Under the pieces are notes generated by a model. The model searched no databases and had not been told where the DNA came from. It saw only the letters and a list, made by a program, of their open reading frames with translations. From positions 10,748-74,747 of the forward strand of contig CANQUB010000001.1 of assembly GCA_947626955.1 (NCBI GenBank): DNA of 64,000 nt. Direction: 5' to 3'. The translations under genes and the position numbers were made by a program. This document shows positions 12,502 to 12,562 of this stretch, piece after piece (positions within the stretch are counted from its first letter, which is position 1; the number at the start of each line of letters is the position of its first letter). Source of the DNA: an uncultured Clostridia bacterium (GTDB taxonomy: Bacteria; Bacillota; Clostridia; Christensenellales; UBA1242).

Positions 12502-12533
12502 ATTTTTTCAAACTATTCGTAAAATACTAGACA
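12502..12533. promoter_or_regulatory. arm-motif-related site upstream of the recombinase gene (candidate recombinase binding site or dif-like site)
   Basis: attttttcaaactattcgtaaaatactagaca. Its reverse complement gatgtctagtattttacgaatagttt matches site A (4690-4735) with the inner 19 nt removed, at about 23 of 26 positions. Confidence 0.4.
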
Positions 12534-12556
12534 TCAAAAAACCCGAGGACTATAAT
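12528..12556 (+). promoter_or_regulatory. promoter of the recombinase gene, probably giving a leaderless mRNA
   Basis: TAGACA (12528-12533), a 17-nt spacer, then TATAAT (12551-12556). The ATG at 12563 is only 6 nt after the -10 and has no usable Shine-Dalgarno sequence. Confidence 0.45.
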
Positions 12557-12562
12557 TAAAGC

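Follow-up and report, generated by a model that had tools for sequence, protein, structure and literature searches.

A solitary dif arm at the promoter of a XerS-like recombinase gene, and single-stranded DNA phages at the probable dif site, in uncultured gut Clostridia

Tn3/gamma-delta resolvase binds res over its own promoter and thereby limits its own expression. At dif in Enterobacteria and Bacteroidetes, Gokushovirus/Microviridae prophages are XerCD-dependent IMEXs (integrative mobile elements that exploit Xer). The site of XerS, difSL, spans 31 bp and consists of two imperfect inverted repeats of unequal size (PMC2965235). It lies directly upstream of xerS, and autoregulation of XerS through difSL was proposed, as speculation, in 2007 (PMC1914069), in a study that also offered the alternative that the close spacing of dif and xer guards against the insertion of IMEXs (Le Bourgeois et al.; PMC1914069). 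Isolated half-sites are bound by XerS monomers in vitro (Nolivos 2010; PMC2965235). In CTXphi, the attP1 and attP2 sites have centers of 12 bp and 5-7 bp and lie 90 bp apart, in a folded-ssDNA attP(+) of ~150 nt (Val 2005, reviewed in PMC4246890). The 64-kb stretch of DNA analyzed here (the window), from an uncultured Clostridia bacterium, contains xer, the gene of a XerS-like recombinase, whose promoter bears a single conserved dif arm next to its -35 element. Upstream lies a complete two-armed palindrome, the probable dif, which holds an inovirus prophage. The solitary arm is probably an operator through which Xer regulates its own gene, most likely negatively.

The gene, its promoter and the divergent serS gene that precedes it are laid out as follows.

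12563..13609, + strand: xer, encoding a 348-aa XerS-like tyrosine recombinase (Pfam, NCBIfam and structure matches)
12551..12556, + strand: -10 element TATAAT, ending 6 nt before the ATG (promoter scan)
12528..12533, + strand: -35 element TAGACA, 3 nt after the arm, in the place of a dif central region (promoter scan)
12511..12524, + strand: putative solitary Xer-binding arm AACTATTCGTAAAA, half a dif site and the proposed xer operator (consensus match, conservation, enrichment)
12428..12456, - strand: divergent serS promoter, TTGACC-17-TATACT (promoter scan)
12357..12367, + strand: extra copy of the arm core, CTTTTACGAAT, in serS codons 13-16, probably fortuitous
11114..12406, - strand: serS, between dif and xer in this lineage (same arrangement in related loci L002, L003 and L081-L085)

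The xer product matches Pfam Phage_integrase (PF00589, 2.5e-31) as well as PF02899. Its best NCBIfam match is XerS (NF003462; 192.2 bits, under the equivalog cut-off of 267), with XerA, XerC and XerD ranked behind it, and the alignment spans residues 11-344 of the product and positions 3-356 of the 360 in the profile. The nearest solved structure is that of XerD (1a0p, 1.4e-18), and the R, K, HxxR, H and Y columns of the RKHRH-Y active-site set are invariant in 18 homologues. Relatives with 55-86% identity are encoded at at least 584 confirmed loci in species-representative genomes, those of uncultured gut Clostridia. By these family and structure matches, the product is a XerS-like, Xer-type tyrosine recombinase, chromosomally encoded and conserved across uncultured gut Clostridia; a preliminary description of this DNA had likewise likened the 348-aa protein to XerS, which is indeed its best family match, aligned over the full length. 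The resemblance to the XerS/difSL system extends to a protein of ~350 aa with an N-terminal extension and to the genetic linkage of the site to the recombinase gene, upstream of which it lies, whereas the score of 192 bits against a cut-off of 267 sets the Clostridia enzyme apart. No second tyrosine recombinase was found within the window. The protein is probably the chromosome-dimer-resolution recombinase of this Clostridia lineage, a proposal that stands together with the account of dif, the arm and the phage given below.

The promoter of xer is close to consensus: TAGACA and TATAAT, separated by a 17-nt spacer, match at 11 of 12 positions in a promoter consensus scan, and 6 nt separate the -10 from the ATG at 12563, both as previously described. 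The in-frame TAA at 12557-12559 leaves no room for an upstream extension of the xer open reading frame (ORF), and in the homologue alignment the N-terminus is conserved starting at residue 1. Similar layouts recur among relatives. In 80 related xer loci that were fetched for comparison, a -10-like hexamer stands 4-9 nt from the start codon in 48, and exactly 6 nt from it in 42, without a Shine-Dalgarno sequence. Leaderless expression of xer from a predicted transcription start at the ATG or within a few nt of it is thus suggested, in line with the earlier claim of a leaderless start. Rfam models detected no structured RNA in positions 1-20000, so neither a T-box nor another RNA accounts for the intergenic conservation.

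Immediately upstream of the -35 lies the motif that first drew attention to this promoter. The + strand at 12499-12565 reads AAAATTTTTTCAAACTATTCGTAAAATACTAGACATCAAAAAACCCGAGGACTATAATTAAAGCATG, and the promoter fragment 12495-12545, which includes the arm, contains ATTCGTAAAA. The reverse complement of 12502-12535, GATGTCTAGTATTTTACGAATAGTTTGAAAAAAT, had been reported to match site A with 19 nt removed at about 23 of 26 positions. When set against 4689-4702 joined to 4722-4735 (site A minus ATTCGTAAAAGGCAGCTTT), it proves identical at 23 of 28 positions, divided between a flank (12/14) and an arm (11/14). The sharing with both junction cores is also reproduced, TTTTACGAATA being common to the promoter site and to both prophage junctions. 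The 10-mer TTTTACGAAT is present in five copies in the window (counted at 4703, 4719, 10361, 12358 and 12515) versus 0.22 expected, and the flank part GATNTCTAGNATTT in two versus 0.02 expected. The motif observation is real and non-random.

The two components of this match differ, however, in what they share with relatives. When conservation was checked, the arm proved invariant in nine genomes, whereas the flank similarity is missing from both the promoters and the dif flanks of relatives and is specific to the window. Thus, of the alignment across a 19-nt gap, the arm component is real and conserved, and the flank component is not retained. Common origin of the two sites by a 19-nt deletion was considered and rejected: the flank is statistically unusual in the window, yet is not found in relatives, and it is outer to the arm at dif but inner to the arm at the promoter, so that the positions are not equivalent. 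The two copies of GATNTCTAGNATTT, with a palindromic TCTAGA core, reside only at 4689-4702, beside the left dif arm, and at 12522-12535, over the xer -35. The additional arm-core copy in serS (12357-12367) is everted with respect to the promoter arm, at a distance of 147 nt, and may reflect chance or be lineage-specific; it was rejected as a second operator, since the serS gene of no relative has it.

Within the 64 kb, only the promoter arm matches the 14-nt arm consensus of the family, AACTATTCGYAAAA, exactly, and it is closer to this consensus than are the window's own dif arms. In an alignment of promoters from nine genomes (Xer identity 66-100%), the block A-CTATTCG-AAAAT is invariant amid flanking DNA that is essentially unconserved, and its position relative to the ATG is -49/-50 in every one of the nine. 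Arms were counted as solitary if they lay outside dif and carried at most one mismatch. By this count, the 80 loci contain 34 solitary arms in 11.2 kb of xer promoter windows and 157 in 1.33 Mb elsewhere, which corresponds to 3.0 per kb against a background of 0.12 per kb, an enrichment of 26-fold; the xer promoter window holds such an arm in 34 of the 80 loci. Beyond the search pattern, the outer bases AAC are as conserved at promoter arms as they are in true dif arms. No second arm at 6-bp spacing accompanies the promoter arm, and the positions at which dif has an invariant TT are random at promoter sites.

Solitary arms adopt two independent architectures. In the first, the arm precedes the -35, and 0-3 nt separate its AAAA end from that hexamer (AAAA[TAT]TTGACA), giving AAAATTGACA or AAAATATTTGACA; the version in the window is AAAATACTAGACA. 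In the second, found at L043, L053, L069, L078 and L021, an inverted arm fills the 17-bp spacer between the promoter elements (TTGACA-TTTTGCGAATAGTTTGT-TATAAT). In both, the -35 hexamer stands where the central region of dif would be. Solitary arms and complete two-armed dif sites coexist in the same loci, and the solitary arm is kept whether a full dif lies ~100 nt away (L033, L036, L045) or ~4 kb away. On consensus match and conservation, then, the flagged site is a conserved single dif arm and not dif.

The window's two-armed palindrome was sought in the same 80 loci. In the form AACTATTCGYAAAA-N6-TTTTRCGAATAGTT, with the arm consensus AACTATTCGYAAAA on both sides, it occurs once upstream of xer in ~50 of them; across these ~50 loci its spacer is always 6 bp, and its distance from xer ranges from 19 nt to ~9 kb. 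Among the 40 loci with at least 3 kb on either side of the palindrome, the GC skew switches there in 28, being positive to its left and negative to its right, with the reverse in one. The palindrome, the fixed spacer and the skew switch together indicate that this element behaves as a dif site. In the window, negative skew extends from 2 kb to 64 kb, and to the right of dif the - strand carries 31 of the 35 long ORFs that do not overlap. As part of the same joint account, the true dif is likely to be the AACTATTCGYAAAA-N6-TTTTRCGAATAGTT palindrome that holds the phage, 2.1 kb upstream of xer once the prophage is excluded.

This arrangement is supported by synteny with the closest relatives (86% Xer identity), whose common gene order is PadR, YgjP-like, dif, serS, xer, M19 peptidase, RNase Y, recA and ftsK. 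In four of them (L081-L084), a single uninterrupted dif lies exactly where the window has the phage element. The GAAAA...TTTTC-type inner arm ends of the difSL consensus are found at the Clostridia dif as well. In other respects the Clostridia site departs from difSL: its 14-nt arms are symmetric and near-perfect around a 6-bp center, its linkage to the recombinase gene is loose (19 nt to several kb), the promoter has a dedicated solitary arm apart from dif, and the hosts are gut Clostridia.

Several further observations concern the surroundings of dif. The genes xer, recA (16892-17884) and ftsK (20570-23635) are grouped within 11 kb, adjoining dif; recA and ftsK lie 3-8 kb from xer, and the FtsK encoded at 20570-23635 has alpha, motor and gamma domains. 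Only four long genes in 50 kb lie on the + strand, xer among them, and the orientation of xer would place it head-on to the presumed direction of replication. On the YgjP side, 12-14 nt outside the dif arm, several genomes conserve a 10-bp palindrome, TTGTTAACAA (window 4674-4683; L081 ~6800; L002 ~7555; L085 ~10912), most columns of which are invariant in a four-sequence alignment amid divergent surrounding DNA; it may serve an accessory factor or act as a terminator element. The 730 nt from attR to serS (10380-11113) contain no ORFs, and long inverted repeats are present there (10582-10604/11082-11104 and 10621-10644/10762-10785). A 291-aa gene that lies between dif and serS in close relatives left no trace in the window that tblastn could detect.

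The element inserted at dif, and the two junctions that bound it, comprise the following features.

4735..10341, - strand: integrase-less inovirus prophage (ORFs, motifs)
4697..4734: attL, the intact dif after integration, GAATTTATTCGTAAAAG-GCAG-CTTTTACGAATAATTTC; left arm from the host, right arm and core duplicated or phage-derived; agrees with the dif consensus of the family
10342..10378: attR, a hybrid of a degenerate phage arm ATTCTTAAAA, a 9-nt spacer GTTGGCAGC and the host right arm TTTTACGAATAAATTCC
5155-6075: Rep_trans-like protein (Rep_trans E = 0.006, a weak match under the Pfam cut-off)
6448-7416: pI/Zot-like ATPase of 322 aa, with Walker A/B motifs and an N-terminal transmembrane segment; homologues carry PF05707 Zot
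8018-9787: pIII-like protein of 589 aa, with Gly-rich repeats and a C-terminal anchor
9787-10002: coat-like protein of 71 aa (ORF and motif)
10006-10191: small ssb-like protein (ORF and motif)

The prophage is 5.6 kb long and has a GC content of 33-38%, compared with 42-48% in the host. No integrase or recombinase was found in it, and by its gene content it is an inovirus prophage of the integrase-less IMEX type. This agrees with what had been surmised earlier about the phage, which contains no recombinase and is inserted in a dif that is empty in L081-L084. Its boundaries are marked by the direct repeat GGCAGCTTTTACGAATAA[T/A]TTCCG at 4713-4736 and 10355-10378. Complementarity between the host left arm (4697-4713) and the host right arm (10360-10376) is 100%, so that the reconstructed pre-integration attB is a perfect dif palindrome. 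The end of attR lies 2.1 kb from the promoter site, with serS between, exactly as first noted. Within the pIII-like gene, a 36-nt tandem repeat array at 8748-9205 encodes 12-aa units resembling EGYxEGKxAGHD, and these repeats give rise to spurious FliH and Yae1_N matches.

Related inoviruses reside at the same dif in L085, L087 and L089, with pI identities of 74, 55 and 53%. In L065, two dif-like sites of the family described here flank a microvirus prophage (1968-7200) that encodes a 565-aa capsid-like protein and a 339-aa HUH Rep-like protein, which implies that a second family of single-stranded DNA (ssDNA) phages uses this dif. This prophage resembles the Gokushovirus/Microviridae prophages at dif in other bacteria; its phage family differs from that of the window's inovirus, and it bears on dif rather than on the promoter arm. 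In the three related prophages (L085 10254-10751; L087 11154-11735; L089 10377-10889), the phage Rep gene and the intact dif are separated by a DUF2726 gene, which in two relatives free of phage (L082 6414-6911; L084 5341-5838) also adjoins an intact dif by itself. It may be a decayed prophage remnant or a satellite element. A tblastn search with all of the phage proteins against the 80 xer loci gave no homologues, and a scan of viral contigs with the pI-like protein gave no confirmed relative. L086, which had the appearance of a free 5.2-kb phage genome, was rejected as such, being a fragment 100% identical to the L085 prophage.

A second dif-like site (10238-10268) is inverted and lies ~90 nt inside the prophage from attR. 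On the coding strand, presumed to be the strand that is packaged, it is predicted to pair with 10342-10373, forming two duplex arms around a mismatched central bubble.

10234..10376, - strand: predicted forked hairpin on the packaged (coding) strand (DNA fold dG -29.2, z -4.77, 0/200 shuffles as good)
L085 5505-5650; L087 5260-5420; L089 4895-5085: equivalent predicted hairpins in the three related prophages

In the window's hairpin, one arm duplex is perfect and the other degenerate, and the top strand of the bubble, GCTGCC, equals the host central region. The hairpins of the three relatives have the same layout in diverged sequences (z -5.46, -6.08 and -4.97). In all four prophages, one dif-like site has a spacer of 9-10 nt and its partner a spacer of 5-6 nt. 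In addition, the phage arm tracks the arm of its host, with a T in the window and a C in L085. The likenesses to CTXphi are these: both are integrase-less filamentous phages in dif, with an intact dif regenerated on one side and a duplicated core and arm; the inverted dif-like sites of the window-type phages are ~90-110 nt apart and have unequal spacers; the predicted forked hairpin of ~150 nt has a mismatched center; and central-region homology to the host is confined to one strand. Differences lie in the Clostridia host, which is of the Gram-positive type, in the use of a XerS-like enzyme rather than XerC plus XerD, and in the equivalence of the two host arms. The packaged phage strand probably folds its two inverted dif-like sites into a CTXphi-type attP on which the host Xer would act as integrase. 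Integration would leave dif intact at attL and make the opposite junction, attR, a dead hybrid.

Set against this occupied palindrome, the solitary arm at the xer promoter is best read as an operator. From the conservation, geometry and enrichment of the arm, the synteny and empty sites at dif, and the predicted folds, we infer a scheme that begins with one Xer monomer binding the arm, the AAAA end of which faces the -35. The part of Xer that normally lies over the central region of dif would then cover the -35 and exclude RNA polymerase, providing negative feedback on a leaderless promoter that is so near consensus that it would need damping. With a single arm, neither a recombinase dimer nor a synapse would form, so that Xer concentration could be sensed without creating a target for recombination or integration. 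The inverted architecture points the same way, as an arm that fills the -35/-10 spacer is compatible with repression only and not with activation. The possibility of autoregulation had been raised in the preliminary description, and it is the best reading of a motif that is conserved, fixed in position and enriched 26-fold. As with resolvase, a recombinase is proposed to sit on a recombination-type sequence over its own promoter; however, resolvase is a serine enzyme and the complete res is itself the recombination site, whereas the Clostridia enzyme is a tyrosine recombinase and its promoter carries an isolated, recombination-incompetent half-site apart from dif. A demonstrated case of Xer autoregulation was not found in the literature, coverage of which was partial. 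All considered, it is fairly likely that the arm is the xer operator, with negative autoregulation by Xer as its most likely mode of action, and that the true dif is the palindrome occupied by the phage.

Several observations weigh against this account. The arm is not a universal feature: 46 of the 80 loci have none in the promoter window, among them loci of the Lachnospiraceae type, which have a Shine-Dalgarno sequence and a dif 1.4-1.5 kb upstream. With regard to dif, only 4.7 kb of the window lie to its left, where the skew is near zero and not clearly positive, and the closest relatives show a step in skew at dif without a change of sign. Finally, in the window's class of promoters the arm is centered near -45, which may fit the geometry of a class-II-type activator.

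This last point bears on the strongest of the other explanations, in which the motif is a functional Xer site with a role other than repression, be it class-II-like activation, loading or sequestration of the recombinase, or assistance to synapsis. Some activators bind where the arm lies in the window's class, at about -52 to -39, and in one clade (L033, L036, L045) the gap of 100-150 nt between arm and dif would permit cooperative interactions. An activating role is nonetheless incompatible with the inverted class, and would be unnecessary at a promoter already near consensus. A fixed architectural role is at odds with a distance between dif and arm that runs from ~100 nt to ~4 kb (7.8 kb with the prophage). 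Roles of this kind are therefore unlikely, although they fare better than the explanations that follow.

A somewhat smaller chance attaches to the motif being a non-functional relic, in the form of a decayed dif or of an old IMEX junction, that remained after the insertion of serS and other genes had parted dif from xer. The family does contain every intermediate, from dif over the promoter to dif kilobases away; degenerate half-sites do arise by IMEX integration, as in attR; and the flank similarity GATNTCTAGNATTT, which is specific to the window, might be a sign of some earlier rearrangement. A relic, however, would hardly stay invariant while the surrounding DNA is randomized across proteins 66-86% identical, nor keep its distance to the -35, -10 and ATG fixed to within 1 nt. 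Nor would it be expected to surpass the dif arms of the window itself in its match to the consensus, or to have a second, inverted counterpart that evolved with the same juxtaposition to the -35. It is very unlikely that the motif is bound by another regulator or resembles a dif arm by coincidence: AT-rich promoter-proximal motifs may serve other factors in general, and nothing found supports such a factor directly, but the arm is identical to the dif arm consensus at 14 of 14 positions, including those outside the detection pattern, and the 26-fold enrichment is specific to xer promoters.

The least probable explanation, a dif-like host attachment or recombination site at the promoter that the phage or other IMEXs could use, draws on the TTTTACGAATA shared with both prophage junctions, the 23/28 match to site A minus 19 nt, the position of difSL directly upstream of xerS in streptococci (PMC1914069) and the full dif 19-90 nt from the start codon in some relatives, but it is contradicted by the single arm with random bases at the second-arm TT positions, by the complete dif present in the same loci, and by the distribution of insertions, none of which lies at the promoter site in the window or in ~90 loci, while five prophages lie in the two-armed palindrome. 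Tyrosine recombination, moreover, requires two bound monomers per site. The earlier designation of 12502-12535 as a dif-like site hijacked by the phage consequently does not hold, the stretch having one arm only and the phage residing in the palindrome, between attL and attR.

The operator reading also speaks to the two explanations advanced in 2007 for the adjacency of a single-recombinase Xer gene and its site. Here the regulatory arm is kept at the promoter apart from dif, and phages insert at dif all the same, which favors the idea of autoregulation over that of protection from IMEXs. The promoter arm would thus provide a clean, testable operator.

Taken as a whole, the picture is of a XerS-like system of gut Clostridia in which the recombinase would repress itself via a dead arm at a leaderless promoter, and in which dif would serve as a landing pad for ssDNA phages, including inoviruses that enter by a folded strand; that this entire picture is correct we regard as an evenly balanced proposition. 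No description of a Clostridia XerS-like system or of Gram-positive inovirus IMEXs was found in the literature, which was covered in part, so that a prior description is possible. If true, this would extend such cases for the first time beyond Proteobacteria and to a XerS-like Xer. In practical terms, the locus offers a dif consensus and a probable terminus marker for many uncultured gut Clostridia, of use in the scaffolding of metagenome-assembled genomes, in estimates of replication rate and in the calling of prophage boundaries. More broadly, the hijacking of Xer by ssDNA phages, including the folded-ssDNA route of the cholera-toxin phage, appears to reach the anaerobic Firmicutes of the gut.

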